This document shows, piece by piece, positions 25,612 through 63,368 of a stretch of DNA of 64,000 nucleotides. The notes below the pieces were generated by a model. The model ran no database searches, was not told the origin of the DNA, and worked only from the letters and a program-made list of their open reading frames with translations. This DNA comes from Alphaproteobacteria bacterium. Lineage in GTDB: Bacteria > Pseudomonadota > Alphaproteobacteria > Rs-D84. Every line of letters begins with the position of its first letter. Within the stretch, counting starts at the first letter, position 1. Where the stretch lies: positions 34,834 to 98,833 of the forward strand of contig WRHR01000002.1 in the NCBI GenBank assembly GCA_009783145.1, given 5' to 3'. Position numbers and translations under genes: made by a program.

Positions 25612-25613
25612 TA

Positions 25614-25738: not shown

Positions 25739-27984
25739 ACTGTTTTCGTCTTCGGGTCGTATACCTTTGGGGTGCCGCGATATCCCATCGTAGAATGATG
25801 GCTGGGGATTAGAAATTCCGGCAGAGGCGTGCTTTCGCCCATACTCCTGAACGCCTGCAGCCGCGGGTCGGAATACGCCGGAGTATAATCCGCTTCGATC
25901 GGCCTGTGGTACCAGCCTTGGAATATTACCAGCTCCTTTTTCGCGTCCAGCTTCAGAATATCCATAGTGCTGTAAAGCGGCTTTCTTTCCGTCGTCGTAG
26001 TGTCTTTTCCGTCCGCGCCCTTGGTCTTTTTCTCCTCCACTTTTTCGCCCATCATATCCGAAAATCTTTTGGCGGTATCGGGGTCATTCTGGCGGAAAAC
26101 GATTTTCGCCGCAGTCGTGGAAATTATGGTTGCCGCCGCGTCCGCGCCGTACTTTTCCTGAATCTGGTGAATATCCTGGCCGATGATAAGATAAGACACT
26201 TTCTGTCCTCGGCCGATATCGGGCCCTTGGATAATCGCCTGCATCTTTTGCATTTTGGGCATTTCGTCCAAGACGAACAAGGCGGGGAACGGCCCGACTT
26301 TTTGACCCTTATGCTCGTCGCCGGGCGCGTTCGCAATCAGAAACTTAGACATAAGCTCGATAAATATTGCCGTTATCGGGTTCAAGGCGTCGGCATCGAC
26401 CTGATTGATGGACAGGTATACCGTAACCGGCTTTATTTTTCCATCGCGCGGGTCGATCATACCGCGCAGATCCGCGAAATGAAAATCACTGTGGCTGGTG
26501 CGATTTCGCACGGCGGCGTTTCGGAAAATCCCCAGCCCCGCCAGAACCGTGGACAGGATGGAGCCGCGCTCCTTGTCCGGGGTATTCGCAATCTGCGTAA
26601 GCTCCAAAACCGCGCGATGGCTGTATCCGTACTGCAGCGCTTCGTTCACCGCGTTCAGGAACAAGTCCTTCATGGGATCGGCCATCATCACCATCTGGTC
26701 GCCTTGCTTGCGGCGGTTTTCTATTTCCTCGGCGATCAGCACCTGATTTTTGTTCAGCCAGTCCAGAATCATGGACAAAGACGCCTCTTTCCCGATCCAA
26801 TCGTCCGGAATCTTCGCCCAAGTCCCGATATGGACATAGTTCATGGCATTCAACTGCCCGTTGGCCAAGGCATGCAGCGCGGCATCCGCATTCGGGTCAT
26901 TCATAAGGGTATAATACTCGCCCAGCAATGCGGCGTCTTCGGAATCGAATTGTCCAGATTGCAGGCGCGCGTAAAAATACTCGTCCGCCTTGACCTTGTC
27001 TATCTTGGAAACCATAAAGTTGATAAGACCCGAAAGCGCCGCGCGGCCGGAAATCGTCCAATGGGGGTCGGCGGTAGAGCTTGTCTTGTCCGCAATAAGC
27101 GTGGAGCATATGGAGTCTATGTAAAGGTCGCGCTCTTCGGCCAGAAACGGCACATGCGAAGGCGATAAAGGGTTCCAGGACGGATAATAAATGCCCGCCG
27201 CCGGATCGTCCTGGCCCGCCCAGTTCATGATAAACACCGGGCCTACTTTCTCCGCGCGATACGCGGACGACTGCTGCTTTAATTCCGGCTTCGGGTCGTT
27301 GATAATCATCGAAACGCCGGTGCAATCAAAGATAGTGGGCAAAACGACGCCTTGGGTTTTACCGGTCCCTGGAGGAGCCAAACATAGGGCGGAAAAAGTC
27401 TCCTTCATCATCAGCGGCTTTTTCTTCCAATAGCCCAGAACCATCATAAAACCGTCAAGCAGGCCCATTTTTTTGACATCTTCGTCATTGGCCTTGCGCG
27501 AGGACTCTTCTTTCAGGGTGTCTTTGCCATGTGGGTTGAACTCTTTAAGCAGGGTATCGTCCGCCAGGATGAAAAACACGGCCAGCGGAAGCAGCGGGGC
27601 AAGCGTCGCAATATCGGTCTGGGTGACGGCTCTCATAAGCCAATCCGGGACTTCGGCCAGCACGGACAAGCCGCCGCTGCGCAGCAGGTTTCCGAAATAT
27701 ACGCTGATCCACTTGGCGGCGGCCGGCGACCAGCCATAGCGCCATATATGCTCGATCGGAAACGCCAGAATAAACGCCAGCGCGCAGGACAGCCAGATAA
27801 TAAGCTTGTACCGCATATTCCAGAACAAGCGCGCCAAGGGCGTCCTTTCGTGGTCCTTGTACACGGACGAGTCGAATATCTTCAGCCCCTTGCCTTTGCC
27901 CGAAAACGATAAAAAGTTGAACTTTTCTGCCATTAGGTTTATTATACCAAAAAAATAGGTAATTGATAATGCAAAACTTGCCAA
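25714..27984 (-). CDS. virD4: Type IV secretion coupling protein VirD4/TraG family
   Basis: Two N-terminal TM segments, Walker A LAPPGTGKTQGVVLPT, Walker B FVLDEMP, 756 aa. Confidence 0.8.
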   Translation of the reverse strand: MASFALSITYFFGIINLMAEKFNFLSFSGKGKGLKIFDSSVYKDHERTPLARLFWNMRYKLIIWLSCALAFILAFPIEHIWRYGWSPAAAKWISVYFGNLLRSGGLSVLAEVPDWLMRAVTQTDIATLAPLLPLAVFFILADDTLLKEFNPHGKDTLKEESSRKANDEDVKKMGLLDGFMMVLGYWKKKPLMMKETFSALCLAPPGTGKTQGVVLPTIFDCTGVSMIINDPKPELKQQSSAYRAEKVGPVFIMNWAGQDDPAAGIYYPSWNPLSPSHVPFLAEERDLYIDSICSTLIADKTSSTADPHWTISGRAALSGLINFMVSKIDKVKADEYFYARLQSGQFDSEDAALLGEYYTLMNDPNADAALHALANGQLNAMNYVHIGTWAKIPDDWIGKEASLSMILDWLNKNQVLIAEEIENRRKQGDQMVMMADPMKDLFLNAVNEALQYGYSHRAVLELTQIANTPDKERGSILSTVLAGLGIFRNAAVRNRTSHSDFHFADLRGMIDPRDGKIKPVTVYLSINQVDADALNPITAIFIELMSKFLIANAPGDEHKGQKVGPFPALFVLDEMPKMQKMQAIIQGPDIGRGQKVSYLIIGQDIHQIQEKYGADAAATIISTTAAKIVFRQNDPDTAKRFSDMMGEKVEEKKTKGADGKDTTTTERKPLYSTMDILKLDAKKELVIFQGWYHRPIEADYTPAYSDPRLQAFRSMGESTPLPEFLIPSHHSTMGYRGTPKVYDPKTKTVKELAISN

Positions 27985-30403: not shown

Positions 30404-30525
30404 AAGTAGGAAGTAGGAGGTAGGAAGTAGGAAATAAAAAGCAACAATAAACGATGTCCATTATAATGGACAACGATTACCTTACTCTATCACTTCCTAC
30501 TTCCTACCTCCTACTTCCTACTTCT
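30404..30525. repeat. Heptamer-array hairpin element, family D: (ggaagta)xn - TGTCCATTATAATGGACA - (tacttcc)xn
   Basis: taagtaggaagtaggaggtaggaagtaggaaat...cttcctacttcctacctcctacttcctacttc; palindrome at 30455-30472. Confidence 0.85.
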
Positions 30526-33004: not shown

Positions 33005-33838
33005 TTATAGCACATTAGCGCGCGCTAGTTCAACAAACTTTTCCATAGGCAATTCTTCCGCGCGCTCTTGCCCGGTTAATCCGAATTGCGACCAATCGAC
33101 GCCGGGCATAATGCTGCGTATCATTTTCCTCCGCTGGCCGAAAAGCTTCGCGGTCAGCTTTTCAACGGATGACAGCTGAATTGTTTTTTTATCTTTCGGG
33201 ATTATCTGCACAACCGCGCTTTGGACTTTCGGCGCGGGGAAAAAAGCGGTATTCGGAATATTGAATAAAATCTTCGCGTCCGCAACCAAAGCGGTAAGAA
33301 CGCTCAGCCGGCCGTATTGCTTATCGCCGACGCGCGCGACGATTCTATCCGCCACTTCGCGCTGGAACATTAAGGTCATAGAGTGGAGAGTGGAGAGTGA
33401 AGAGTGTAGTTGGTGCAGCCACTGAATTAAAAGTTCAGTTCCGATATTATACGGAAGGTTGGAACAAATTGCTAAATCATCTGCACTCTTCACTCTCCAC
33501 TCTTCACTCTTGAAATATTTCAATGCGTCGCCATAAATAACTTCCAGGCGGCCGTCTGCGGCGTTCGAAATTTTTTTCAAAATCAGCCCGGTCGCACGGT
33601 CTTTTTCAATCGCGATAACTCGCGCGGCGCCGCACTCCAGCAAAGCGCGCGTCAGGCCGCCCGGCCCTGGGCCGACTTCGACAACCGTAGCGCCCTGTAT
33701 GCCCGGCACGCTGCGCGCTATTTTCCGCGTGAGGTTCAGATCGAACAGGAAATTCTGGCCCAGCTGCTTTTTGGGTTCCAGGCCCGCATCGCGCATCATT
33801 TCTGCAACTGGGGGAAGATTTAATAATTTTTCATTCAT
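33005..33838 (-). CDS. rsmA: 16S rRNA (A1518/A1519) dimethyltransferase
   Basis: SAM motifs VVEVGPGPGGLT, NLPYNI; contains a 28-bp inverted repeat pair in-frame. Confidence 0.85.
   Translation of the reverse strand: MNEKLLNLPPVAEMMRDAGLEPKKQLGQNFLFDLNLTRKIARSVPGIQGATVVEVGPGPGGLTRALLECGAARVIAIEKDRATGLILKKISNAADGRLEVIYGDALKYFKSEEWRVKSADDLAICSNLPYNIGTELLIQWLHQLHSSLSTLHSMTLMFQREVADRIVARVGDKQYGRLSVLTALVADAKILFNIPNTAFFPAPKVQSAVVQIIPKDKKTIQLSSVEKLTAKLFGQRRKMIRSIMPGVDWSQFGLTGQERAEELPMEKFVELARANVL
33379..33512. repeat. Inverted heptamer arrays (gagtgaa/gagtgga ... cactctt/cactctc) inside the rsmA coding sequence
   Basis: atagagtggagagtggagagtgaagagtgtag and ctgcactcttcactctccactcttcactcttg, 71 bp apart, bracketing the NLPYNI codons. 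Confidence 0.85.
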
Positions 33839-35863: not shown

Positions 35864-36976
35864 TCAATGAAACACAAAGCAATCTATCTGCTGCGTTTTG
35901 GCCGCCTGGCATGCGCTCTGCGCCGCGCTTTCCGACAGGCCGTTCGCACGCACGCGGAACATTCCGCTGGGGGAAGGCTCAACCACCGCTGACAGTCCTG
36001 TAATATTACGAACGCGCGTCACTTGCGATTCTGCGGCCGCCCGTGATCCGAAAGCACCAAATTGAACGCCAGTCCCGCCCGCGTTTTGCACGGGAACAAT
36101 TGCCGCGGGCTTGCTTAACGGCTTCGTTACGGCCACGGGCGGCGGCGCATAATTATTCTGCACCGCAACCGGCGCCGCGCCAGTTCCTAGTATTGTAAAT
36201 CCTTTATCCAGCATCCTTGTCGAAACCGCGGCGCGAATATCCTTGGTTTGCGCGCCCAGAACAACGCTCATCACGCGCCGACCGTCGCGTTTGGCTGTTG
36301 CCACCAGCGAATATTTGGACTTGTTCGTATATCCTGTCTTCATACCGTCGCATCCCGGATACGACGCCAGCAGCCGGTTCCCGTTGGTATAAGTCTGCCC
36401 GTTATAAGTCCAGCTTTGAATCCCGAAATATTTCCAATATTGCGGGAAATGCTTGTAAACCGCCATAGACAGCAATGCGATATCGCGCGCGCTTGACAGG
36501 TGGTCGTCGTCCGGCAATCCGGACGAGTTCTCGAAATTAGTCTTGGAAAGCCCGATTTCCGTCGCGACCTGTGTCATCAATGACGCGAAGTTTCCCTCCT
36601 TTCCACCCTTCAGGTTTTCCGCCAAAACCCGCGCGACATCATTCGCGCTGTGCACCGCGACGGCTTTTATCGCGTCTTCAACCCTTATCTTCGACCCCGC
36701 GGCCAGGCCCAGTTTTACAGGCAAAGCATTCGCCGCGCTTTGCGAAACGATTAAGTGGTCGTCCAGATTAAGACGCTTGTGCTCCAACGCGTCGAATGTC
36801 AGATACAGCGTCATGATTTTCGTAAGAGATGCCGGATAATTCAGGTCGTTCGCGTTCTCGGAATAAAGCACTTTGCCCGTATCCAAGTCCGCGACAAGCA
36901 CGGCGTTATAGTCGGCTGCAAACGCCGATACCGAAAGAATAAAGAATAAAGAATAAAGAATAAAGAATCTCTTCAT
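35864..36976 (-). CDS. dacA: D-alanyl-D-alanine carboxypeptidase (PBP5/6 class) with C-terminal SPOR domain
   Basis: SxxK (ASLTK), SxN (SAND), KTG motifs; C-terminal VQFGAF...SPOR-like; signal peptide MKRFFILYSLFFIL from a repeat arm. Confidence 0.8.
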   Translation of the reverse strand: MKRFFILYSLFFILSVSAFAADYNAVLVADLDTGKVLYSENANDLNYPASLTKIMTLYLTFDALEHKRLNLDDHLIVSQSAANALPVKLGLAAGSKIRVEDAIKAVAVHSANDVARVLAENLKGGKEGNFASLMTQVATEIGLSKTNFENSSGLPDDDHLSSARDIALLSMAVYKHFPQYWKYFGIQSWTYNGQTYTNGNRLLASYPGCDGMKTGYTNKSKYSLVATAKRDGRRVMSVVLGAQTKDIRAAVSTRMLDKGFTILGTGAAPVAVQNNYAPPPVAVTKPLSKPAAIVPVQNAGGTGVQFGAFGSRAAAESQVTRVRNITGLSAVVEPSPSGMFRVRANGLSESAAQSACQAAKTQQIDCFVFH

Positions 36977-37082
36977 AGCATGAAAGAGTACAAAATTTTC
37001 ATATAAAAGGTCAATTAATAAAAGTACCGCGCAACCTAGATTACGCGGCCCTAATTTATTCTTTATTCTCTATTCTTTATTC
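36937..37082. repeat. Heptamer-array hairpin element, family E: (aagaata)x3 - spacer - (tattctt)x3; left arm codes the dacA signal peptide, right arm abuts the pyk stop
   Basis: gaaagaataaagaataaagaataaagaat ... ttattctttattctctattctttattcttta. Confidence 0.8.
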
Positions 37083-37083
37083 T

Positions 37084-38472
37084 TTAATCCAAATCTCTCA
37101 ACGAAATTTTATCCCCTTCGACTATTACCAGCTTTCCGCGCGTGACGCCAAAGCGACGCGCCGCCTCGGACGCGTCCTTTTGTCCGAACATCTGCTCGTT
37201 AAAAATCGGATAGACCCCGCGCGAAAGGCACAACTGATTCGCATCTATCGCATCGTTGCAGACCGCGATTATCGGCATATCGGGTTTCCGACAGGAAACA
37301 GCCGTCGCAATTTCAGTCCCCGCGTCAAACACCACGATCGCCGCGGCTTTGTTCAAATGAGCCATCGACGCGACGCTGCGCGACCAGTCGTTTTCGGGCA
37401 AGTTCTCGATTCGCGTCCAATCCTGTCCGTTCTCATAAACGTCCCCGTCGGCGTTGGTCACGATTTTCGACATAGTATCGATCACGTTTATGGGATTGTC
37501 GCCAATGGTCGTTTCTTCGCTGGTCATAACGCAGTCCGCGCGCAAATAAGACGCCAGCGCGACGTCGGAAATTTCCGCGCGCAAGGGGAACTCGCTGTGA
37601 ACCATGCTGCCCAGCATCTGCGTTGCGACGATGATCGGCTTGTTCATCTTGCGGCACATGCGGATGCTTTCGCGCTGCAGCGCGGGAAGCTTTTCAAAAG
37701 GTATTTCCACGGCCAAATCCCCGCGCGCGAACATAATAGCGTCGGAAATCTGAATGATTTCTTCCAGCCGTTCCAACGCCTGGGGCCGTTCTATTTTCGA
37801 AATGATTTTAATAGGCTGACTGGAACGAGCCGTGATAAAATCGCGGGCCTCGGCCACGTCTTCGGGCCGCTGCACGAAAGAAATCGCAACCCAATCGGGG
37901 TTCTTGGTCAGCGCGTATTCCAAATCCGTACGGTCTTTTGGCGTCAGCACCGAAGTTTCTATATCGGTATCGGGAATATTGAACCCGCGGCGCGACCAGA
38001 TTTCGTCGCCGCGCTTTACTTTTGTCGTCACGGAGCAGAGCCTGGATTCAACCGTGCAATTGTTATTCAGAACTTCCAGCTCTATCTTTCCATCATTCAA
38101 TAAAACGCGGTCGCCGACTTTCAAGGACTTCAAGACATCGTTATCCGGCAGGCAGACGCGGGTTTCATCGCCGCGAGCAGGATTATTGTCCAGAACGAAT
38201 TCCTGACCGACTTTCAAAGGATAGTGGTTTTCGGTTTTAAAGTCGCCTATGCGGTGCTTTGGCCCCTGCAAGTCCGCGATGATCGCAATCGGACGGCCCA
38301 GTTCTTCGGATATCTGTCGTATCAAGTCAATCTTTTGCCCCTGGACATCGCCGGTGTCATGCGAAAAATTCAGGCGGCAGGCATTCACGCCCGCATCAAC
38401 CATCGACTTCAAAGTCTTGTAATCCTGGCTGTTCGGTCCGATGGACGCGATTATTTTAGTGAGTTTGGTCAT
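37084..38472 (-). CDS. pyk: Pyruvate kinase
   Basis: MTKLTKIIASIGP..., conserved K+/Mg sites, 462 aa. Confidence 0.85.
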   Translation of the reverse strand: MTKLTKIIASIGPNSQDYKTLKSMVDAGVNACRLNFSHDTGDVQGQKIDLIRQISEELGRPIAIIADLQGPKHRIGDFKTENHYPLKVGQEFVLDNNPARGDETRVCLPDNDVLKSLKVGDRVLLNDGKIELEVLNNNCTVESRLCSVTTKVKRGDEIWSRRGFNIPDTDIETSVLTPKDRTDLEYALTKNPDWVAISFVQRPEDVAEARDFITARSSQPIKIISKIERPQALERLEEIIQISDAIMFARGDLAVEIPFEKLPALQRESIRMCRKMNKPIIVATQMLGSMVHSEFPLRAEISDVALASYLRADCVMTSEETTIGDNPINVIDTMSKIVTNADGDVYENGQDWTRIENLPENDWSRSVASMAHLNKAAAIVVFDAGTEIATAVSCRKPDMPIIAVCNDAIDANQLCLSRGVYPIFNEQMFGQKDASEAARRFGVTRGKLVIVEGDKISLRDLD

Positions 38473-49466: not shown

Positions 49467-49590
49467 AGGTAGGAGGTAGGAAGTTGGAGGTAGGAGGTAA
49501 GAGAGTAAAAGTTTTTTCTTTTAATTTATAGAATAAATTCTTAATCACCAACTTCCTACCTCCTACTTCCTACTTTCTACTTTTGTCCCT
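49467..49590. repeat. Heptamer-array hairpin element, family D with central ttggtgattaagaatttat core (inverted relative to the 53330-53462 copy)
   Basis: taggtaggaggtaggaagttggaggtaggaggtaagagagtaaaag ... accaacttcctacctcctacttcctactttctac. Confidence 0.8.
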
Positions 49591-52231: not shown

Positions 52232-53311
52232 TTACGATTGCTTCAGGATTTCTTCAGCGATGTTAGCAACGGCATTGTTTTCAATCTTCGCCTTTGCCGC
52301 CATCTTTTTCAGGCGCGCCCCATTGCTAAACAATTCCTCCAGCGTTGCGGATAGCCACCTTGAAGTAAATTTGCTCTGCGGGATTGCAATGCCGCCGCCT
52401 TGCGAAGCAAAAACTTCCGCATTCGCCGCCTGGTCGGGGTTTATCCCCAACGGGACCAGAATCGCCGGACGGCCAACGGTCTGCAATTCCGCGACCGTGC
52501 TTGCGCCGCTGCGCCCTATCACCAAGTCCGCCGCCGCCACTTCCGATGCCATATCATGAATGAACGACAGCACGTTCGCCTTCACGCTGTTGCCGGCATA
52601 GAACCTTTGCAAGCGCGCGACGTTTTCCGGCCGGGTCTGATGCACTATGAACAGCTTCTTTACGATGGATGACGGAAGAAGGATGATGGACGACGGAACC
52701 ACGTCGTCCAAAATCTGCGCCCCTAACGAACCACCGGTGACAAGAAGACGGATGATGGATGATGGATGATGGATGATGGATGACATAAATTCTTTACGAA
52801 CAGGTAATCCTGTATAAACAACTTTCAACTTTCCATCATCCGTCATCCGTCTTCCATCATCCATTCCCTCCACCTTTGGAAAACTTGTCATCAAAGTATT
52901 TACCCAGCGCAGGGCGAATTTATTCGCGCGACCAATTGCCGCGTTCTGCTCGTGCAATAATGTCGGGATTTTCCAAACGCGCGCCGCCAAAATTGCAGGA
53001 ACGGACGCATAGCCGCCGAATGCCACAACTCTGTCCGGTCGGAAAACCATAAAGCGCAGCGTCAGAGCAACCGCCGAAAAGCCGATCTTCATCAATGCGA
53101 AGACTTGCTGCAACTTTCCCTTGGCGCCGACGCCGGACGCCCAAACCCAAGCGATTCCCGCGCGCGGAGGCTTATTCTTTTTCACCATATCCATAACGCG
53201 CGAATCGGTCGAGATTATCACGCGATTATGGCGCCGCACCAATTCTTCGGCAACGACCAGCGCTGGAAAAACATGCCCGCCGGTTCCCCCGGTCGCAATC
53301 CATATCTTCAT
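52232..53311 (-). CDS. murG: UDP-GlcNAc:undecaprenyl-PP-MurNAc-pentapeptide GlcNAc transferase
   Basis: GGTGGHVFPAL N-terminus, C-domain LLVTGGSLGA; linker holds an inverted (ggatgat) array element. Confidence 0.85.
   Translation of the reverse strand: MKIWIATGGTGGHVFPALVVAEELVRRHNRVIISTDSRVMDMVKKNKPPRAGIAWVWASGVGAKGKLQQVFALMKIGFSAVALTLRFMVFRPDRVVAFGGYASVPAILAARVWKIPTLLHEQNAAIGRANKFALRWVNTLMTSFPKVEGMDDGRRMTDDGKLKVVYTGLPVRKEFMSSIIHHPSSIIRLLVTGGSLGAQILDDVVPSSIILLPSSIVKKLFIVHQTRPENVARLQRFYAGNSVKANVLSFIHDMASEVAAADLVIGRSGASTVAELQTVGRPAILVPLGINPDQAANAEVFASQGGGIAIPQSKFTSRWLSATLEELFSNGARLKKMAAKAKIENNAVANIAEEILKQS
52748..52867. repeat. Inverted heptamer arrays (ggatgat)x5 ... (atcatcc)x4 inside the murG inter-domain linker, in-frame
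   Basis: gacggatgatggatgatggatgatggatgatggatgacat ... ccatcatccgtcatccgtcttccatcatccattcc; codes MSSIIHHPSSII and GMDDGRRMTDDG around the conserved GLPVR block. Confidence 0.85.
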
Positions 53312-53329: not shown

Positions 53330-53462
53330 TATAAAGTAGGAGGTAGGAAGTAGGAAGTTGGTGATTAAGAATTTATATCTCGAAATAAAAGCTCTTACTC
53401 TCTTATTTCCTACCTCCTACCTCCTACCTCCTACTTCCTACTTCCTACTTTCTACTTCCACT
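53330..53462. repeat. Heptamer-array hairpin element, family D between ftsW and murG (right arm overlaps the ftsW 3' end)
   Basis: agtaggaggtaggaagtaggaagttggtgattaagaatttat ... ttcctacctcctacctcctacctcctacttcctacttcctactttctacttcc. Confidence 0.8.
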
Positions 53463-54597
53463 TGTCCTCTCGCACCAATGCCAATATCATACCAAACATC
53501 AGGCAGAATGCAACAAAAGACGAGCCGCCGTAAGATATGAACGGCAAAGTCATTCCCTTTGGCGGAAACAGCCCCAGCGCCGACATCACGTTTATGCAAA
53601 CTTGAGTGCCGAACAAGGCGAACAATCCGCCGCATGCATAAAAAACAAACTTGTCCTTGGCTCGCGTCGCGTCTGTAGCCAGGCGTTTCATCACGTATAA
53701 AAATCCCAGCAAAAGGACGCAGGCTATTATGGCGCCGGAATCTTCCGCTATCGCGGAAAAAACAAAGTCCGTATGCGCGTCGGGCAGCGATTGCTTTATA
53801 AAGCTGTCTTCGCCGCGGCCGAATAATCCGCCGTGCTTTACCGCCTCTACCGATTTTTTAATCTGATAGTTATCGCCGCCGCCGGCAAGACCCAAGAACC
53901 CCAGCACCCTCATTCGTACGTGCGACATGGTGAAGAATGCGAACACTCCACCCGACGCACCGACGCCCGCAAAAATCGGAAGAAAATACATCGGCAAGCC
54001 CGCCAGAAAAATCATAGAAGCGAACACGATTAAATAAAGAACGAACGAGCCGAAATCCGGATGAGTCAATATAATCAAAATCGCGGGCAGAAATAATGCC
54101 AGATATGCCGGCCAGCCGTCCCATTTCCATGCTCGCTTTGCAAAGAATATATCGCCCGGCGCCAGCTTTTCAATGCGCGTCAAGAACCATGCGGTTAAAA
54201 TTATGAAGCCCGGTTTCAACAAGTCGCTGGGCATAACGGACGCAAAGCCCAGATTGACCCAGCGCGCGGATCCTTTGACCGCTGCGGGCATGACCAAGGT
54301 CGCAATCAGCAGCAGCCCGCATATGACCACGTTCACGAACGCGACGGCGAAAACTTGCCTTTTGCTTAAGAATGACGACACAAGCAGCGTTATCAGCCCC
54401 AGTATGTAAAAGGGTATCGCTTTCAGCAGAAAGAAATGCCACGGCTGGGGCGGATTCATACGCTCGGCCGCCACAGAGCCGGCGGACACCATCGCCCACA
54501 TGCCGACGAATATAAGCGCGATAACGCACCAGAACAGACGGCGGTCTATTTCAAAATACCAGCTTGTTAATTTGCTCTCTTCGCTTCGGCGCAGCAT
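53452..54597 (-). CDS. ftsW: Cell division/peptidoglycan polymerase FtsW (SEDS family)
   Basis: 10 TM SEDS topology, 381 aa, dcw-cluster context. Confidence 0.85.
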   Translation of the reverse strand: MLRRSEESKLTSWYFEIDRRLFWCVIALIFVGMWAMVSAGSVAAERMNPPQPWHFFLLKAIPFYILGLITLLVSSFLSKRQVFAVAFVNVVICGLLLIATLVMPAAVKGSARWVNLGFASVMPSDLLKPGFIILTAWFLTRIEKLAPGDIFFAKRAWKWDGWPAYLALFLPAILIILTHPDFGSFVLYLIVFASMIFLAGLPMYFLPIFAGVGASGGVFAFFTMSHVRMRVLGFLGLAGGGDNYQIKKSVEAVKHGGLFGRGEDSFIKQSLPDAHTDFVFSAIAEDSGAIIACVLLLGFLYVMKRLATDATRAKDKFVFYACGGLFALFGTQVCINVMSALGLFPPKGMTLPFISYGGSSFVAFCLMFGMILALVREDKWK

Positions 54598-54598: not shown

Positions 54599-55666
54599 TT
54601 ACAACCTCAACAATAACAACGCGATTCCTGAAAACAGAATCGACATTATGAAAAACCTTTCCACGATTTTTGATTCGGGCAGGCCCAGTTCTTCGAAATG
54701 ATGATGCAGCGGCGCGCGCTTGAAGACTCTCTTGCCGACTCCGTTTTTCTTGGTCAGCTTATACACGAAAGTCTGAATAAAGCTGGACAGCAATATGGCG
54801 ACCAGCATCAGGGACGCAACGCCGATTACTATCTCGGCCTTAAGCAGCATCGATACGGTTCCGACAAATCCGCCAAGAGCAAGGCTGCCCGTATCGCCCA
54901 TAAAGATACTTGCGGGCGCGGAATTGAACCACAGGAATCCGACCAGCGCGCCCAGCGCCGCTCCGATTATCGGAAACAGGCTTGCCGCTTCGGGCAACAT
55001 AACCGCGTTCGGGATAAAGCCAAGGCGCGTCACTCCGAACAAGGCGATCAACGCCACGACCAAAATCGGAATATAAATTTTCGACAGCATGCCGTCCAGC
55101 CCGTCCGTAATATTCGCGGCATTGGCCGTGCCAGCGATTACGAAATACGCCAGGACGAAATATAAAATCCCCAGCGGCAAAAGATACCCGCCCGGAAACC
55201 AAAGCGAATATTCCGGCAGATAGAAAGGCATCGTCTGATTGATGAAATAAGCCAGCCCCAAAACGCCCAGCCCTTCCAGCCCCAGGCGCATTTTGGGCGA
55301 CAGGCCGTTGTCGGCTTTCTTGCTCTGAGAGCGGACTTTTTTAAAGTCGTCGGCAAATCCTATGGCGCCGAACCATAACAAGGCCGCGATTGAGATCCAA
55401 GGCGCATCCTGGCCCCAGTCCATAAACAAAACGCCGCCAACAACAATTGCCAAGACCATCAGCAGCCCGCCCATAGTCGGCGTTCCCGACTTGATCAAAT
55501 GCGACTGCGGCAAGTTTTCGTTAATGGGCTGTCCTTTTTTCTGCCAGCGGCGCATGGCGTTTATGTAGCCCCGCCCGAAAATAACCATAATCAGAAAAGC
55601 TGCAGCAAACCCGCAAGCGAAAAGCGCCCCGCCGCCAAGTTCAATGTTCAAGAGTTGTGGTAACAT
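54599..55666 (-). CDS. mraY: Phospho-N-acetylmuramoyl-pentapeptide transferase
   Basis: 355 aa, 10 TM, conserved DD/DGLDG and HHH motifs. Confidence 0.9.
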   Translation of the reverse strand: MLPQLLNIELGGGALFACGFAAAFLIMVIFGRGYINAMRRWQKKGQPINENLPQSHLIKSGTPTMGGLLMVLAIVVGGVLFMDWGQDAPWISIAALLWFGAIGFADDFKKVRSQSKKADNGLSPKMRLGLEGLGVLGLAYFINQTMPFYLPEYSLWFPGGYLLPLGILYFVLAYFVIAGTANAANITDGLDGMLSKIYIPILVVALIALFGVTRLGFIPNAVMLPEAASLFPIIGAALGALVGFLWFNSAPASIFMGDTGSLALGGFVGTVSMLLKAEIVIGVASLMLVAILLSSFIQTFVYKLTKKNGVGKRVFKRAPLHHHFEELGLPESKIVERFFIMSILFSGIALLLLRL

Positions 55667-55674: not shown

Positions 55675-55750
55675 CCTTTTTTTATTTACGATTTAAGATT
55701 TGCGATTTTACTCCCGACAAATCGTAAATCGCAAATCGTAAATTATTTTT
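55675..55750. repeat. Heptamer-array hairpin element, family F: (tttacga) / (atcgtaa) arms around GGGAG-like core
   Basis: ttatttacgatttaagatttgcgattttactcccgacaaatcgtaaatcgcaaatcgtaaatt. Confidence 0.8.
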
Positions 55751-55754
55751 TCCA

Positions 55755-56486
55755 TTATATCCCCAAAATCGTCCAAAGCAATCTCCGCGCGTCGATATAC
55801 GATTTATACAGCAATTCGCCGACCCTCTTCCACCGCGCCACCAGATATTTTTTCTTTTCGGCATAATTGATGCTGCTGGCCACGCCCTTGCGTTCCCAAG
55901 CGATGTTAGGGAATACCGACCGGCCGCGGACGCGGTACTTCCAATATTTTATGTACTCGTGGTCATGCGGGACGAACATAGGCAGCATTTTGGCGACATA
56001 TCTTTTCGCCGCATCGCGCTTTATCAGATAAGCCCCGGATTTGTTCTGATGAAACGCGTTCCTTACCAGATGATATTTTCCGCCAAGCAACTTGCGCATA
56101 CGGATTTTTCCGCCTCCATGTGTGCCGTATAGCTTCACGATATCCCAATCGTCCTTTGATATTATGTCGTCCAAGACCTGCTTGAAATCCACAGCGAACT
56201 CCATATCGTCTTCCAGTATCAGGCCGATGTCGGCGCCCGTTTCGACGAATTTCTCCAATGCCTCGTAATGCGAGATATAGCACCCGATTTCATTGTTCAT
56301 CACGATTCTGCCGTGGACGAAAGTATGAAGGCCGCGATTGACCTCCCTGCTTGTAAATGTCCGTATCTTGCCGTCGGTGCCCGAAACGCGGACAAAATCC
56401 AAGCCGACAGCTTTCAGGTTTTTTTCGGTTTGTTCCATGCGCTCGGGTGCGCGGTCCAAATTTATTACGAGCGTTTTCATTTTCAT
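55755..56486 (-). CDS. Glycosyltransferase family 25 (LPS core beta-glycosyltransferase-like)
   Basis: MKMKTLVINLDRAPERMEQTEKNL... typical GT25 N-terminus. Confidence 0.65.
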   Translation of the reverse strand: MKMKTLVINLDRAPERMEQTEKNLKAVGLDFVRVSGTDGKIRTFTSREVNRGLHTFVHGRIVMNNEIGCYISHYEALEKFVETGADIGLILEDDMEFAVDFKQVLDDIISKDDWDIVKLYGTHGGGKIRMRKLLGGKYHLVRNAFHQNKSGAYLIKRDAAKRYVAKMLPMFVPHDHEYIKYWKYRVRGRSVFPNIAWERKGVASSINYAEKKKYLVARWKRVGELLYKSYIDARRLLWTILGI

Positions 56487-57793
56487 TTCTTCTTTCCCTC
56501 CGCAAAGATTTTTCGCCAGTCGGAAACTTGCTTTTTCGTATTATCCCAAATCTTTTTCAGGTCGCCGCTGACTTGCTTGCCGAACGACTCGTCTATCTTT
56601 CCGCCCATGTCTTCCGCAATCTTGGTCGCTTTATCCGCCAGATATGCGACCAGGCAGCCGACTATCAGGACCGGCATAAAGCCTTCGGATTGCACTGTCG
56701 GAACCTTGTCTCCCAAATCAGTTGTAACCACTCCGCCCAGCAATGCCGCGCCTATGGCCGCAACGACCGCGAGTATAATGAAGTAAATCACCGCCTGGAT
56801 GAACCTTTTTATCTGGTCGGGCAGCGAGGTATATTTGAAAATTCCCGCAAAGGCCGTAAATATGGTGGCCGGGATGCCTTCCAAGTTTGTGGCCTTCTTG
56901 CCGCCGAAGCATTCCGTAATAGCGGTAAACGGAAGCAGCATTATCGCCATGAACAAGTCCACTATCACGCCCAGCGCCAGCAAGGCGAACTTCCAGATAT
57001 TTATCGTGAAAATCACGACAAAGACAGCGCCCGCGACGAAAGTCAGCGCGCTGTGGCCGATCCCAAACCACATCCACTTGAAGCCCGCCGCGACGCAGGT
57101 ATAAAAGAATCCCGATAGACGCGTCGGCAGGCATAATAAATCCGCCGTGTAACGCGATGATACTATCCCGCCGCTATTACCCACAAACTGGCGGATCGCA
57201 TCGCAAGTATCGGGCAGCTTTGTCCCCGCCGCGCCCGCGACGGAATCCAGTATCAGGTTCGACATATACGCGCCGGCGCTTATTATTGGCCCGAAGATCG
57301 TCATAAAAATCTGGCCCGGATTGTTGGACAGCACCCACAGCCAGACGGAAATCAACAGCGCTTTCTTTGCGACCTCTACGCCCAACTTTTTAACATCACC
57401 CTGGCCTTTTATGAGATTATAAGCCTCGAACATTATCCAGAACGCGAACAGGGCCACCAGCAGGGTTTGCACGAACTCGAACAGAGAACGCTGCAGAGCG
57501 TCGCTGATGCGGGACAGGGCGCCGATAAAGGCCTTTCCCACGCGCGCTTCTATAGGAACGTAATCTTTTACCAGCGCTTTCTGAAAATTGCCCTGGAACG
57601 AATCTATGTCCAGCGACAGATTGCTCATAAGAAGTTTCTGTTTTTGTTCGTCGAGCCAAGAGCCGGTATTCCCACCAGCGACGATTTCGCCGGCTATGGC
57701 TTCATTATTAATCACAGGAGACAGAACATCATCGGCAAAGGCATTGCCGATGCAAAGAATAAAGAATAAAGAATAAAGAATAAATTTTTTCAT
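56483..57793 (-). CDS. VirB6/TrbL-like type IV secretion inner-membrane protein, paralog D
   Basis: Signal peptide MKKFILYSLFFILCIGNAFA (repeat-encoded), multi-TM core, hydrophilic C-tail; start taken at MKKFIL. Confidence 0.55.
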   Translation of the reverse strand: MKKFILYSLFFILCIGNAFADDVLSPVINNEAIAGEIVAGGNTGSWLDEQKQKLLMSNLSLDIDSFQGNFQKALVKDYVPIEARVGKAFIGALSRISDALQRSLFEFVQTLLVALFAFWIMFEAYNLIKGQGDVKKLGVEVAKKALLISVWLWVLSNNPGQIFMTIFGPIISAGAYMSNLILDSVAGAAGTKLPDTCDAIRQFVGNSGGIVSSRYTADLLCLPTRLSGFFYTCVAAGFKWMWFGIGHSALTFVAGAVFVVIFTINIWKFALLALGVIVDLFMAIMLLPFTAITECFGGKKATNLEGIPATIFTAFAGIFKYTSLPDQIKRFIQAVIYFIILAVVAAIGAALLGGVVTTDLGDKVPTVQSEGFMPVLIVGCLVAYLADKATKIAEDMGGKIDESFGKQVSGDLKKIWDNTKKQVSDWRKIFAEGKKK

Positions 57794-57797
57794 TCTA

Positions 57798-59261
57798 TCA
57801 ACTCTTCTTCCCAAACGCGCCCGTGACTTTTTTCGTTATGCCGGACGGGATATCCCACAGCTTTTTCCCGAACTCCTTGAACGTGCTGCCGATATTTAAT
57901 ATGCCGTCCTTGCCGCCTTGCGTGTCTCCTACCAGAATCTTGTCGATCTTATCCTGCACAACATAGAAATAGACCAGGAATATCCCCAGCATCAGCATAA
58001 AGAACTGCCAGCCGTCCTTCATAAAGTCGAACGCGCCCGGATGCTGGGCCTCCACGATGGCCTTTTCGCGGCTAAAGCATTCTTTAAATAAATTCTTGTC
58101 CATTACGCCGTCGACCAGCGATATGCTTTCGCATTCGGCAAATACTTGCGCCACAACGACGTTTCGCGAGTTCTCGGCCGTCTGCATTCCGGCAAGACCA
58201 GGCGGGAAAATCGCGGAGTATCCGTCCAGAGGTCCCGGGAAATATTCGTCCGCGGCATAGGTCACCACCGCATAGATTATCAGGACTTTCAAGGTAATCG
58301 CGACCACCCGCACAGCGCAATTCACCAGCATTTCGACGGATTTCCCCACTGCGCCCTTTAATATATTCCAAACGTTCTCATATGCATAACTGGCGATAAT
58401 AACGGGCAAGAAGATTATTATAAATACAAGGCGGAAAACTACATTTAAGATATCGAAGAACAGGCTGAACCCGATGATTAAGAACATGATGACCAAACCC
58501 AGGCCCGCCATCCAAGTGAACAATCCCCCGCCCATCCCCATCCAGGAAAAATTCATCAGCGAAAAGCCCCCTGACGCGCCGGCAAGTATCACCGTGCTGG
58601 CATTACCAATAACGCACATAAACGGTTTTAACGCCGGCCCTATGACGTTGCTTTCTCCGGCGCTGGACAGAGCCGGACAGCTTGCCGCGCTGACCGCACC
58701 GGTCGCGGCCATAGCCAGTTCCGAGCCCACATACATAACAGGCCTGATAGTAATATCGGATACCGCCTTTAAAATCCCGGTCCCGCCAAGCGACAGCGCG
58801 CCCAGGAAAGCGCCCACCGCCAGCACGCGCGCGCCCTGCTTCCATACCCCGTCGAACCACTTTTGAAAGTCAAGTTTTCTTTCGTCCTCTTTCATTTCAA
58901 TGTTTTGTTTGTTCGCTTCCCGCAGAGTCTTCACCGTATGCATAAACAGGAAAATCACGAACCCCAGCGCCAACAGTATCCATAGGTTGCCGACCAGCGC
59001 TTCCCAGAAATCTTTCGTCGCCGTCCCTATTATATTGAACAACTGCTGGACGTACGGGCATAAAAAGCATCCGCGGCTTGCGGATATGTCGCAAACGCCA
59101 TTTGCATCGCAAGCCCCAGTGGCGTGCAGAAAGCTGTCCAGGCTGACATAACTGATAGAATCGCCGTTAATGCTGGACGACAAGTACCAGATGCCGACGC
59201 CCAGCGCGATTATCCACATAATCGCCTCTACCGCCATCAAGATGAGTTTCGACTTCAACAT
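57798..59261 (-). CDS. VirB6/TrbL-like protein, paralog C
   Basis: 487 aa; N-terminal TM, periplasmic CFLCPYVQQLF Cys pair, polytopic core. Confidence 0.55.
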   Translation of the reverse strand: MLKSKLILMAVEAIMWIIALGVGIWYLSSSINGDSISYVSLDSFLHATGACDANGVCDISASRGCFLCPYVQQLFNIIGTATKDFWEALVGNLWILLALGFVIFLFMHTVKTLREANKQNIEMKEDERKLDFQKWFDGVWKQGARVLAVGAFLGALSLGGTGILKAVSDITIRPVMYVGSELAMAATGAVSAASCPALSSAGESNVIGPALKPFMCVIGNASTVILAGASGGFSLMNFSWMGMGGGLFTWMAGLGLVIMFLIIGFSLFFDILNVVFRLVFIIIFLPVIIASYAYENVWNILKGAVGKSVEMLVNCAVRVVAITLKVLIIYAVVTYAADEYFPGPLDGYSAIFPPGLAGMQTAENSRNVVVAQVFAECESISLVDGVMDKNLFKECFSREKAIVEAQHPGAFDFMKDGWQFFMLMLGIFLVYFYVVQDKIDKILVGDTQGGKDGILNIGSTFKEFGKKLWDIPSGITKKVTGAFGKKS

Positions 59262-59340
59262 GATTTACGATTTACGATTTACGATTTACGATTTAGGGAG
59301 TCAAATCGTAATTCGCAAATCGTAAATTATTTTTTCTCCT
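59262..59340. repeat. Family F heptamer-array hairpin filling the gap between virB6 paralogs C and B
   Basis: atgatttacgatttacgatttacgatttagggagtcaaatcgtaattcgcaaatcgtaaatt. Confidence 0.85.
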
Positions 59341-60586
59341 CTGTTCCCGATTTTGCTTCTTTCTTGTCTCCGTCTTCGGCTTTTTTCTCCGGCTCTTTTC
59401 CCGTTGCCGCGTTCCACAGGATTGTTCCCGTTTTCTTCGCGAAATCAAAAGTATTCTGTCCGATTTTTAATGCGTCTTCGCCCAGCTTGTCGCCAATGGG
59501 GTGCCTTTCTTCTATATTGAACGTTTTATGTATCTCTTTCGCCACATCCCCGATATGGTCGGCCAGGTATTGCACGACATAGATCAGGACTATGACCCCG
59601 CCCAGCGTTACCATCGCCAGATTGTCGCCCTCCAGATCGCCCGCGAAAACGCTGCCATCCATTATGCCTTTGGCGAGAGCGGCGCTGTCCGCTCCGGGGC
59701 TGGAAAAGAACTTCGCGACAATCGTCATTATCACGACATAGGTTATCACGACCGTTGCCAAGGACACTATGGAGTTTATCACATTTCGGAAGTATCCTTT
59801 TTCGCCGACTATGGCGGTCCCGATGCTTTTCACCCACTTGGCGGACTCGCCGAATTGGGCGTTTTGTATTACGAAAAAGACCAGCATTATCGGAAAGAAG
59901 AACGCGAAGAATGTAAGGTCTATGATCACGTCCACAAAGTAAAAGCAGAATTTTATGAACAGCCTGAAAAACGACCAGACAATAAAAAGCCCCATAAAGA
60001 ACAGCATTATATGCTTTATAAGATTGCTGACCGGCCAAAGGGCTTTCCAAGTGAGCGAATGGTCCACAATCACCATTCCCATCTTCATCATCGCCTGGAA
60101 CTGAGTAATGCTGGTCTTCATCAAAAGGACTATGCGGTCGCGGAGCTCGGGCCGGTAAAACCCGTTGTCCGGCATCTGTTCGGTTCTGTATACTACTTTT
60201 TCCGAGACCTTTCCTTCTTCGGTATTCAGCATGGAATGAGTATATACCAGGGTCATATCGGCAACGGGCTCGAAAGTTATAGTAGTGATAAACCGCGGCA
60301 CCATAACGCCCAGCCCAAGGATGGCGATAACGACAAGCGAGTTTATCATAACCGGTTTGAAATATTTCTGATACGTCGGGTCAATATCGTCGGATTTCAG
60401 ATTCTGCAGGACCGCATACAAGACGTAAAAGGCGACAAACACGGACAGCAATACGGCCGCCAGCAACGCCATCTTGTCATAAATCGCGGCAGCCGCGGCG
60501 CTGATTACCTGGAACAGGCGGTCGAATATTGGGCAGCTCCAGCACTGCACGGTTTTACCAACAAAAGTGTCTATTAATGTGTTCAT
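59327..60586 (-). CDS. VirB6/TrbL-like protein, paralog B
   Basis: 419 aa; CWSCPIFDRLF motif, polytopic, KE-rich C-tail. Confidence 0.55.
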   Translation of the reverse strand: MNTLIDTFVGKTVQCWSCPIFDRLFQVISAAAAAIYDKMALLAAVLLSVFVAFYVLYAVLQNLKSDDIDPTYQKYFKPVMINSLVVIAILGLGVMVPRFITTITFEPVADMTLVYTHSMLNTEEGKVSEKVVYRTEQMPDNGFYRPELRDRIVLLMKTSITQFQAMMKMGMVIVDHSLTWKALWPVSNLIKHIMLFFMGLFIVWSFFRLFIKFCFYFVDVIIDLTFFAFFFPIMLVFFVIQNAQFGESAKWVKSIGTAIVGEKGYFRNVINSIVSLATVVITYVVIMTIVAKFFSSPGADSAALAKGIMDGSVFAGDLEGDNLAMVTLGGVIVLIYVVQYLADHIGDVAKEIHKTFNIEERHPIGDKLGEDALKIGQNTFDFAKKTGTILWNAATGKEPEKKAEDGDKKEAKSGTEEKK

Positions 60587-60665
60587 TTACGATTTACGAT
60601 TTACGATTTACGATTTACGATTTAAGGAGTCAAATCGCAAATCGTAATTCGTAAATATTAAATTA
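60587..60665. repeat. Family F heptamer-array hairpin filling the gap between paralogs B and A
   Basis: (tttacga)x5-tttaaggagtcaa-(atcgcaa)(atcgtaa)... Confidence 0.85.
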
Positions 60666-61946
60666 TTTTCCTTTTACCCACCCCAGCGCTTTCCCCGCCT
60701 TCTTGCCCCATTCGTTCACGTTCTTGTATGCTGTTTTGGTGTCCGCTTTCGCGTTATCGTACAGCTTGGTCATACTCTTATCCTTATCGGCGCCCGTATA
60801 TTTCATCAGTTGCTCTTTCGTCTCGTCAAAGATTTTGAACATCAAAAAGAACGTAAGCAGCGCGGACAGCCAGACGATGGAATGCCCTCCGAATCCCATC
60901 GCCCCGTCCCCGTTCCCCGAGAATGCGGGACCGTTAAAGTTAAACAAGGCGCGCACCGCCGCGATATTGATCGCCAATATAAACACGCATGCAATCATAG
61001 TTATAACCAGCTTCTTCAAGCTGTCTATTATACCCCCGAATGCGGGCCACGGATCAATCCATTTATCCGAGTCTTTCGCAACAAACATCAGGACTTTGAA
61101 CGGGTACAGCATCAAGGCCATTCCGAACTCGAAGATGCCCTGGATTATCAACAATGCCATAAAGAAGTTGCTGGACACAAAAGCAAATACCAGGAAAATC
61201 CCCGTAATCAGATTCAATAAATCCCGCCCGCCGTTCGGGACAAGATTGGCCATTCCAGTCAAGCCGGATGTTATGAATGTCAGCCCGCGCTTTATTATCT
61301 GATTATTGACATGGGTTATATCGGCGACGGGTTGGACCAGGAATTGGCAACTTTCTTTTGAGATATACTCTTTTTTTATGATGTTTTCCGGGCATTCAAT
61401 CTGCCGCGCGCCGGCGAACTCATTATTTTTATTTATGATTTCGGAAATGCTGTGCGTATAAAGCGCGCCAAAGCGCAGGAAAGGATCGACCACGACTTGC
61501 GTGACATATTGGGGCTTTACCTGCAAAAGCAATCCGGCGGCGATGATTCCGCGCAAGGCGGGCTTTACCAGGTCCTCGGAAATTTTCAGCGCGGACGCTT
61601 TGCCTTCCCACATCTGTCCGCCTTTCATTCCGAAAAAGGACAGCCAGCTTGGCGGCAGATACATCTTGACCAGATACATTCCGATAAAAAAGCCCAGCCA
61701 TCCCCAAACGAACAAGTAAATAATCCCGTCGCCCTTGCCGACAAAGAACTCGTACCCCGCCATAGCGATGGACATGAACGAGTCCAAAACTATGGGAACA
61801 AACGGGGACAAGTCCAGGCCGTCCACCAGCCCCCAAGCGGCATGCGCCCCAAGGGGCGCAGAGCATAGAGCAAAGAGCAAAGAGCATAGATAAAAGAGTT
61901 TTCTCGAGAATTTCATCCAATCCTGATTATAGCATAAAAAGCCCAA
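60663..61946 (-). CDS. VirB6/TrbL-like protein, paralog A (true start probably MKFSRK about 61913)
   Basis: Signal peptide LFYLCSLLFALCSAPLGAHA, CQFLVQPVADI motif, polytopic. Confidence 0.55.
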   Translation of the reverse strand: MGFLCYNQDWMKFSRKLFYLCSLLFALCSAPLGAHAAWGLVDGLDLSPFVPIVLDSFMSIAMAGYEFFVGKGDGIIYLFVWGWLGFFIGMYLVKMYLPPSWLSFFGMKGGQMWEGKASALKISEDLVKPALRGIIAAGLLLQVKPQYVTQVVVDPFLRFGALYTHSISEIINKNNEFAGARQIECPENIIKKEYISKESCQFLVQPVADITHVNNQIIKRGLTFITSGLTGMANLVPNGGRDLLNLITGIFLVFAFVSSNFFMALLIIQGIFEFGMALMLYPFKVLMFVAKDSDKWIDPWPAFGGIIDSLKKLVITMIACVFILAINIAAVRALFNFNGPAFSGNGDGAMGFGGHSIVWLSALLTFFLMFKIFDETKEQLMKYTGADKDKSMTKLYDNAKADTKTAYKNVNEWGKKAGKALGWVKGK

Positions 61947-61973
61947 TCAAATTATGATATAATTGATAAAAAC

Positions 61974-63368
61974 ATGACCCGCTGGCGCAAATTTTGGATA
62001 ATTTTTCTTTCTTTCCTCCCCTTCGGCGCGGGGGCGGTTGCTCCGTTGGTAATCGGGCTGATTGCCGGCGGGATTTCAATCGCAGGTTTTTCAATTTACC
62101 GGTCTATGTCGCCCGTTAATATGCAGGACGCGCTCTCGTTCTTTTCCAGTTGCTGGTCATGCGGCATATTCAACGACATAATGCTGGCCATGTCCGATAT
62201 TTTGCCGAAAATCTATTCCGCAATCGGCGAGTTCTGCGTGCCTATGGCATTCGCGCTTACGGCCGTTTACTTCGGCTGGGAAATCTTAAAGGGCTATATC
62301 GGCGTGGGAAAGCAGCCCGATGCATGGAGCATTTCGGGCCAATTCGGCACGCACTTGGTAAAACTGGCACTCGTCGTCGCGCTTTTTCTGTTCCCTTTGC
62401 CGCGCTTCATAACGAACGTCGCGATAGAGCCCATATTCAACGTCGGCCTATCCCTTGGGCATGCGGTTGACGGCAAGTTCGCCAAGGGTACCGCCAGCGA
62501 GCATTCGTTCGAGTCCTGCCTGGTCGCGACCGCAGTGATGGACCCGTCCAGCGCAGAGCTCGCAGCAAAAGGGGGCCTGTCCCCCGAAGCCTTGGCGAAG
62601 GGGGGCGCTTTTTCACCAAAGCTGCGCCATAACATGACATGCCAACTGGGCCAGGTCCATCAGATGACGGGGCTGGGCCTGACCGCAGGCTGGACCATTA
62701 TGAACATGGCGTTCAACGGCGAATATATGCACAAGCTGATCATCCCGATATTCCCGAACGTGGCGATGTTCTTGGCGGGAATGCTGGTTACGGTATTGTT
62801 TTTCTTTGCGCTGATTCCCGTGCCGCTTTACTTTCTGCTGACTTTCATAAGACTGTCGATGAACCTGGTGATGCTTCCGCTGATGCTGTTGGGGTGGCTT
62901 TTCGAAGGATGGCAAATATTTCCCCAAGGCAACAAGCCCAAAATTATCATCGACCAGGTGGTTCAGGATTCTCTGGGCATCGCGATGGTCGGGATATTTA
63001 CGGCCTTTTCGGTATTGTTCCTGAATGCGGCGTTCGGCAAATGGGGGGGCGCGAGCGTATTGCAGACCGCATTGGAGACAAACGATTCGCATTATCTTAT
63101 AGACGGCCTGATGATGAATAACGGAAGCCTGATCACGATACTGATGCTGGGAATATTCCTGGCTATGTTTATGAACTCCATACCGGCGCTGACCCAAGCA
63201 TTGTTCGGCGAGGTCAAAATCCCGGAAGATTACTATAAGAAAGCCCGCGACGACCTGAAAAAAATCAGCGGAAATGTGACTGACTGGTGGAAAAAAGTCA
63301 GCAAGGCAAATAAAGGTGAAAGTGCAGGTGCAAGTGAAAGTGGAAATGCAAACAAAACAACTAACTAA
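61974..63368 (+). CDS. VirB6/TrbL-like protein, paralog E (opposite strand to A-D)
   Basis: 464 aa; CWSCGIFNDIM motif; C-tail GESAGASESG coded by a hairpin arm. Confidence 0.55.
   Translation: MTRWRKFWIIFLSFLPFGAGAVAPLVIGLIAGGISIAGFSIYRSMSPVNMQDALSFFSSCWSCGIFNDIMLAMSDILPKIYSAIGEFCVPMAFALTAVYFGWEILKGYIGVGKQPDAWSISGQFGTHLVKLALVVALFLFPLPRFITNVAIEPIFNVGLSLGHAVDGKFAKGTASEHSFESCLVATAVMDPSSAELAAKGGLSPEALAKGGAFSPKLRHNMTCQLGQVHQMTGLGLTAGWTIMNMAFNGEYMHKLIIPIFPNVAMFLAGMLVTVLFFFALIPVPLYFLLTFIRLSMNLVMLPLMLLGWLFEGWQIFPQGNKPKIIIDQVVQDSLGIAMVGIFTAFSVLFLNAAFGKWGGASVLQTALETNDSHYLIDGLMMNNGSLITILMLGIFLAMFMNSIPALTQALFGEVKIPEDYYKKARDDLKKISGNVTDWWKKVSKANKGESAGASESGNANKTTN

Follow-up and report, generated by a model that had tools for sequence, protein, structure and literature searches.

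The stretch of DNA examined here (the window, 64 kb of contig WRHR01000002.1) belongs to a termite-gut metagenome-assembled genome (MAG) of the alphaproteobacterial order Rs-D84 in GTDB, and the element in question is a group of five neighbouring genes, A to E (the quintet), which an earlier reading of the bare sequence (the original prediction) had taken for VirB6/TrbL-like paralogs. VirB6 is a polytopic protein of the inner membrane, and its pentamer serves as a platform below the stalk of type IV secretion systems (T4SSs). An open reading frame (ORF) map agrees with an independently made gene call of the genome on the gene order, with murG, ftsW, mraY, a GT25 glycosyltransferase gene, D, C, B and A on the minus strand and E on the plus strand (Table 1), and the five ORFs, one of them inverted, do lie where they had been placed. 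The divergence of E from A, put at about 60 bp between starts, amounts to 57 nt with A starting at ATG 61916. The 4-bp overlaps proposed for this region hold for the D stop and the GT25 start, but not for C and D, which are 4 nt apart at the called start, or for ftsW and mraY, separated by 1 nt.

Hydropathy distinguishes roughly four to seven hydrophobic segments in each paralog (four in D) and all five carry lysine-rich hydrophilic C-terminal tails, in line with the polytopic core and hydrophilic tail originally described. Two other features that had been attributed to every member are more restricted. A conserved CxxC is confined to B (C15/C18), C (C65/C68) and E (C60/C63), A and D having instead the invariant Cys pair of the central loop that is common to A, C, D and E. 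An N-terminal transmembrane (TM) segment is lacking in B, which begins straight with its CxxC segment, a property kept in its orthologs, while the N-termini of A and D resemble cleavable signal peptides. The start of C is confirmed by an MLKxK N-terminus conserved in orthologs.

Sequence comparison shows that A to E are paralogs of one another. BLASTP links B to E (5e-11), B to C (2e-6), A to B (1e-4) and D to E (1e-3), and hhalign, applied to family profiles built from the orthologs of each paralog in 80 related genomes, aligned all four other families to that of E over 180–350 columns (B, 98%, E-value 6.5e-14; D, 94%; C, 92%; A, 91%). Among the remaining pairs, A–D (90%) and C–B (87%) scored high and A–B (8.8%) and A–C (1.4%) low.

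The fold of solved VirB6 was matched by predicted models of the paralogs. Two paralogs modelled independently were both all-helical and both ranked TrwI, the VirB6 of plasmid R388, first, with ~94% of the TrwI chain covered; the top five Foldseek matches of the predicted model were TrwI chains throughout (probability 1.00), and DotA came second or third in the two rankings of matched proteins. Sequence bridges point the same way. The E-family profile retrieved 249 proteins at E ≤ 1e-3 from 1.84 billion representatives, and 27 of 60 long, distant proteins among these matched Pfam TrbL at E ≤ 0.01 (best 1.2e-8), the TrbL stretch falling within the region matched by the E profile. One of them, P0338, exceeds the TrbL gathering cutoff (29.0 versus 25.9 bits, residues 230–352) and is matched by the E profile at 3.2e-8 (residues 53–343). 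Single-sequence phmmer connected TrwI to a 425-aa protein of another array described below (L173_425aa, 1.1e-4), and other paralogs of that array to E of the window (1.8e-7). Moreover, a CWxC motif is nearly invariant in the distant relatives of the E family.

Against this stands the silence of direct comparisons. None of the five matches TrbL (PF04610) in Pfam, or any T4SS model of NCBIfam, even at E ≤ 1; precomputed Pfam annotation is blank for hundreds of quintet homologs, which databases call "hypothetical". The E-family profile found nothing at E ≤ 10 among all PDB sequences, tblastn of E against 72,556 plasmids gave no match, hmmsearch with a TrwI hidden Markov model against representatives gave marginal matches at most, and hhalign probabilities for the single families and the merged superfamily, compared with an alignment of the TrwI family, were 0.2–10%, a weak test given how narrow that alignment is (≥51% identity). 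The label VirB6/TrbL-like thus stands by fold and by transitive profile links, but not by a direct profile match. That A to E might be unrelated polytopic helical proteins, with the TrwI match arising from convergent helical packing or as a modelling artefact, is nevertheless very improbable: two independent models rank TrwI first over nearly its whole length, another T4SS channel protein (DotA) comes close behind, and the profile links to Pfam-TrbL-positive proteins are significant and cover the same region. On the strength of the TrwI fold match and of these bridges, we assign A to E to the TrbL/VirB6 superfamily, with homology to VirB6 very probable, and conclude from profile links and predicted structures that they appear to form an extremely divergent, Pfam-invisible branch of it. 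For annotation, this is a caution that a branch of the superfamily escapes both Pfam and NCBIfam.

The quintet was followed in Candidatus Enterousia and related MAGs, recovered from the guts of humans, rodents, ruminants, birds and termites and all of the order Rs-D84, not Rickettsiales, although some submitters tag such MAGs "Rickettsiales bacterium". The D-C-B-A/E order with 1:1 orthologs recurs in 79 related loci and in every sampled Rs-D84 member; across ~80 species-level genomes the orthologs are 52–76% identical and their housekeeping context is constant. Also kept 3′ of E are a soluble protein of 147–169 aa (no TM segment apparent in the translation and no family match), L31 and an inositol phosphatase. 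The quintet is a fixed, ancient arrangement in Rs-D84. VirB6 and VirD4 genes are typical cargo of plasmids and of integrated conjugative elements, and a VirD4 gene does occur in the window (see below) with no other T4SS genes found nearby, as would be expected if the quintet were the decaying remnant of such an element. We regard this as the least probable of the alternatives weighed here, since the five genes are intact and orthologous in the same context throughout the order, no relaxase, integrase or VirB4 gene lies near the array, and its base composition resembles that of the flanks.

Conservation extends to the spacer between A and E, where a palindrome of two back-to-back extended −10 boxes occupies 61926–61963. 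The alignment of relatives' A/E spacers contains the inverted repeat ATTATATCACA ... TGTGATATAct, and 56 of 80 loci have both boxes in divergent orientation, usually at a distance of 16 nt. We infer that the boxes are a putative promoter pair serving both arms, with both mRNAs near-leaderless, and their conserved position argues for ATG 61916, rather than TTG 61946, as the start of A.

Besides the quintet, the window contains a gene that the original prediction had overlooked, for a VirD4/TraG-type coupling protein; this orphan, 34 kb from the quintet, has rsmE on one side and a pseudouridine synthase gene on the other, in a housekeeping context. Relatives of this protein were confirmed in gut metagenomes (136 in all), and the 80 retained are at 57–85% identity. 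To our knowledge, VirD4 has no role outside T4SSs, and its orphan location is compatible with a T4SS whose genes are scattered.

Tandem VirB6-like genes were also found outside the order. In three further lineages (GC 30–44%; loci L091, L172 and L173) four or five such paralogs of 399–1331 aa, some fused to Peptidase_M23, stand in a housekeeping context and are preceded by a 51–86 aa two-TM protein; the L172 and L173 arrays have an HTH_3 protein and four conserved unknown proteins downstream in common.

The best-supported reading, which we favour if with reserve, is that of a chromosomal T4SS with scattered genes, like the rvh systems of Rickettsiales, in which the five specialised VirB6 proteins would form or tune the inner-membrane platform and, together with the conserved VirD4, would serve secretion toward a host or partner cell. 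A to E would probably be subunits of a single hetero-oligomeric VirB6 platform, none of them redundant. The narrower idea that each paralog fills one position of the VirB6 pentamer, in a 1:1:1:1:1 hetero-pentameric platform, stems from the coincidence of five paralogs with the pentamer of the R388 structure; arrays of four also exist, which speaks against the hetero-oligomeric part of the proposal, and we think the hetero-pentamer unlikely.

Several findings, besides the failed direct matches above, weigh against a T4SS. We probed all ORFs of 170 loci and of the window by phmmer with ten single R388 proteins, a probe that is adequate for VirB4 and VirB11, weak for the rest and insensitive to divergent proteins, as it missed the window's own VirD4. 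Within these limits, VirB4, VirB8–11 and VirB2/3 were not found in the window, as the original prediction had stated for virB3, virB4 and virB8–11, nor did any of these proteins turn up in 80 relatives up to 10 kb from the array, or at the same distance from VirD4 in 80 metagenome loci, and no VirB4 adjoins the arrays of the three other lineages. The DNA examined from this genome comes to ~75 kb, ~10% of a genome of such size. Matches of the probe were limited to MgsA-type AAA proteins at ~1e-3, which are not credible as VirB4 or VirB8–11.

These absences lend weight to an alternative in which a VirB6-derived membrane machine works without a canonical T4SS, either as a hetero-oligomeric conduit to a partner cell, carrying metabolites or macromolecules, or in an envelope function linked to the cell wall, VirD4 being unrelated or separately used. 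It would account for the lack of VirB4 or VirB11 near the array or VirD4 in 160 loci and for the arrays of four or five VirB6-like genes without an adjacent T4SS ATPase, and it agrees with the finding that in 58 of 83 relatives mraY-ftsW-murG are no more than 10 kb from the array, and with the lack of standard transporters in Rs-D84 (PMC12306168). It is opposed by the retention of VirD4 in relatives despite no other known role for it, by the scattered layout known for rvh-type systems, which makes absence from a neighbourhood uninformative, and by the two configurations of the dcw linkage, which look like neighbourhood rather than function. We consider this alternative rather unlikely, and retain the scattered T4SS as the favoured reading.

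Rs-D84 genomes measure ~0.75–1.0 Mb and lack the tricarboxylic acid cycle, respiration and standard transporters, a partner-dependent lifestyle has been proposed for the order, and a genomic survey of it mentions "hypothetical membrane-bound proteins" but no secretion systems (PMC12306168). We found no literature report of a T4SS in RF32 or Rs-D84, nor of a link between VirB6 paralogs and the pentamer. For an order that is widespread in the guts of humans, livestock, rodents and termites, and whose proposed partner dependence has come without a known interaction apparatus, the VirB6 quintet and VirD4 would be a concrete candidate machine, and virB6 proliferation of the rvh style would extend beyond Rickettsiales. 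If the hetero-pentamer were true, it would explain that proliferation as subunit specialisation, and the asymmetric platform could be the main conduit of Rs-D84 to its partner cell, other T4SS parts being possibly reduced or unrecognisable. Being short (417–487 aa), the paralogs also lend themselves to multimer modelling aimed at the reason for keeping four or five copies of VirB6 in such systems.

Table 1. Coordinates of the features discussed (positions in the window unless another locus is named).
Feature	Position	Strand	Description
Paralog A	60663–61916	−	417 aa; VirB6-fold; cleavable-looking signal peptide; without CxxC; alternative start 61946
Paralog B	59327–60586	−	419 aa; CWSC at residues 15–18; without N-terminal TM segment
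Paralog C	57798–59261	−	487 aa; CFLC at residues 65–68; start ATG 59261
Paralog D	56483–57793	−	436 aa; signal peptide; without CxxC; alternative start 57814
Paralog E	61974–63368	+	464 aa; VirB6-fold membrane protein; CWSC at residues 60–63
Extended −10 box TGCTATAAT	61926–61934	−	Faces A-B-C-D; 9–10 nt from A ATG
Extended −10 box TGATATAAT	61955–61963	+	Faces E; 9–10 nt from E ATG
VirD4/TraG-type coupling protein	25714–27984	−	Pfam T4SS-DNA_transf 1.3e-49, TraG-D_C 1.5e-20, TrwB_AAD_bind 2.3e-17
GT25 glycosyltransferase	55755–56486	−	Pfam Glyco_transf_25, 3.7e-21
mraY	54599–55666	−	Pfam
ftsW	53452–54597	−	Pfam
murG	52232–53311	−	Pfam
Hairpin F1	55684–55743		GT25 stop/mraY start; −23 kcal/mol, z −5.7; loop inverted relative to F2 and F3
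Hairpin F2	59262–59327		B stop/C start; −28.9 kcal/mol, z −7.6
Hairpin F3, (ATTTACG)n/(CGTAAAT)n	60585–60663		A stop/B start; −31.4 kcal/mol, z −7.8
Heptamer palindromes, among others	112–236, 1037–1116, 11421–11507, 25613–25733, 30404–30524, 33380–33511, 36934–37086, 49467–49582, 53334–53463		
VirB6-like array, L091	6361–17362		
VirB6-like array, L172	2119–12777		
VirB6-like array, L173	5980–11416		

The arrangement that had been described as a fusion of the quintet to the dcw cluster through GT25 is real in this genome, but it does not reach far beyond it. GT25 lies between D and mraY in the window genome alone among ~85 loci searched, and mraY-ftsW-murG follows D directly on the same strand only in the window and nine relatives of its subclade (L011–L014, L016–L018, L023 and L055). 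In five further relatives the three genes are ~2.4 kb beyond D, and in 44 they are downstream of E on the other strand. Compared in this way, the D–mraY linkage has the appearance of a conserved neighbourhood that inversion has rearranged, rather than of a functional fusion.

The gaps at GT25/mraY, B/C and A/B are filled, as first noticed, by three hairpins of one family (F1–F3) with an ATTTACG unit, a pattern found 19 times against 0.37 expected, and none of 200 shuffles was as stable as the folds of F1–F3. Each stem (25–32 bp) has the UAA of the upstream gene, on the sense strand, immediately next to its 5′ foot. The AUG that follows lies at the 3′ foot in the case of B and 2 nt past the 3′-arm heptamer array in the case of C; no free Shine-Dalgarno sequence is present at the start codons at the feet of the stems. 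In relatives the genes at these junctions abut or overlap by 4 nt, without hairpins, and an ATTTACG array occurred in one of 171 fetched loci, namely that of the same genome. On these comparisons, we take the F hairpins to be members of a class of heptamer-repeat palindromes spread through the genome that apparently inserted or expanded here recently and in this species only. In doing so they would have broken an ancestral translational coupling while leaving the stop and start codons next to one another at the stem's foot.

The original prediction had seen in the hairpins the punctuation of one long transcript, that is, RNase processing sites, exonuclease barriers or attenuators setting the expression of A–D and of the dcw genes. 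Very stable stems placed exactly at gene junctions fit this view, as does the stabilisation of upstream mRNA segments by REP-type hairpins, and stems with start codons at their foot but no free Shine-Dalgarno would be expected to affect translation initiation. However, the hairpins are missing from these junctions in every relative, F1–F3 have no Rfam match and are not among the terminator-like sites, and similar palindromes inside the murG coding sequence and rRNA genes fit promiscuous insertion. As intrinsic terminators or attenuators they were rejected: their stems are A+U-rich, not G+C-rich, and are followed on the sense strand by an A run or a start codon, with no U tract. Functional punctuation has, in our view, a limited chance of being correct. 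The overlapping or abutting junctions of relatives argue against a conserved regulatory role, and any effect of the inserted hairpins on mRNA stability or translational coupling would be a secondary consequence and not a conserved design.

About 15 inverted pairs of tandem 7-nt arrays, forming long hairpins mostly at gene ends, occur in the 64 kb, with units that vary by site (AATTAGC, TAATGAC, AAGTAGG, AAAGAAT and others). Among relatives the median is zero heptamer arrays per 21-kb locus, several being found just in L012, L018 and L038. We rejected an origin as miniature inverted-repeat transposable elements sharing a conserved core, since the centres of copies built from one and the same unit are unrelated. 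In murG (52664–52864), three in-frame arrays (GGATGAT/TCCATCA) encode MDDGRRMTDDG, SSIIHHPSSII and PSSIILLPSSI, in place of the variable loops that surround the conserved VVYTGLPVRKEF segment of MurG, and the mRNA is predicted to form a hairpin there (−63 kcal/mol, z −8.4).

Heptamer units also encode the hydrophobic cores of two signal peptides in the quintet, that of D (FILYSLFFIL) being encoded by 4.4 copies of a 7-nt unit within 57754–57784 and that of A (LFYLCSLLFALCS) by 5.6 copies within 61860–61898. Because gain or loss of one unit shifts the frame, slippage at these arrays could turn both genes on or off. Further repeat arrays lie inside the 16S (21367–21401) and 23S (18394–18472) genes of a complete rRNA operon (15880–21586, minus strand; 16S, two tRNAs, 23S and 5S) whose 16S match measures 1697 nt against a 1533-nt model, which suggests insertions of palindromes or intervening sequences. 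A 23S_rRNA_IVP-family gene is present at 2632–3456.

Beside the rRNA operon, a low-GC stretch (12000–16000; 0.37–0.43) with an AAA_15/SMC_N ATPase gene (13870–15192) and, next to it, a gene with an RloB domain has the look of an acquired island of the defence type. Two large secreted proteins with signal peptides, u713 and u986 (713 and ~970 aa), are encoded next to each other at 6330–11356 on the minus strand; they have a low-complexity Ala/Thr/Arg-rich N-terminal part, a very Cys-rich C-terminal part and no family match, and could be adhesins or effectors. Just upstream of the gene for the 713-aa protein is a 33/66-nt tandem repeat (11649–11799; 2–4 copies, 68–75% matches). At 22158–24819, also on the minus strand, the paralogous u300 and u426 (300 and ~422 aa, with signal peptides and no Pfam match) end in LG(L/V)MYRF, and because such an ending is typical of outer-membrane β-barrels they look, from their sequences, like proteins of that type. 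All four were considered as hidden T4SS parts and set aside, none having a Walker A motif.

Compared with known elements, the heptamer palindromes resemble REP and RPE in being short, imperfect palindromes with many dispersed, lineage-specific copies, mostly at gene ends and in some cases in frame within coding sequence (murG) or in rRNA genes. They differ in that their arms are tandem 7-nt units, the unit sequences differ between sites and the centres are variable and unrelated; no associated transposase was identified.

Among T4SS proteins, DotA of the Legionella Dot/Icm type IVB system (PDB 9NGY), with ~850 residues and other domains, has a fold score far below that of TrwI. TrwI itself (PDB 7O3V and 8RT9; 342 aa) is 75–145 residues shorter than the Rs-D84 paralogs, which differ from it also by the conserved CWxC in three of the five and in distant relatives, by the central-loop Cys pair of A, C, D and E, and by forming a fixed set of five, not a single gene, that is not encoded beside virB4, virB5 and virB8.

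The rvh T4SS has duplicated virB4, virB8 and virB9, lacks virB5 and has its genes scattered in islands. The present locus shares with it a chromosomal tandem of four to five virB6-like genes, carried by an alphaproteobacterium of reduced genome, and T4SS genes dispersed among housekeeping genes, VirD4 being far from the quintet. It differs in lineage, in the divergent orientation of one paralog, in the putative palindromic promoter shared by the two arms, in proteins that fall below Pfam detection and in having no virB3-virB4 before the array, a comparison made on layout and family detection. Tandem virB6 arrays, already known from Rickettsiales, were rightly cited in the original prediction as a hallmark of rvh systems, and the purpose of the duplication is called "a mystery" even for Wolbachia (bioRxiv 10.1101/2025.08.29.673095); the present locus has five paralogs of VirB6 fold, of which four are in tandem. 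What is new here is the lineage, a divergence below all curated models, the fixed 4 + 1 layout with its putative palindromic promoter, the CWxC signature and, in this genome, the heptamer-palindrome insertions.

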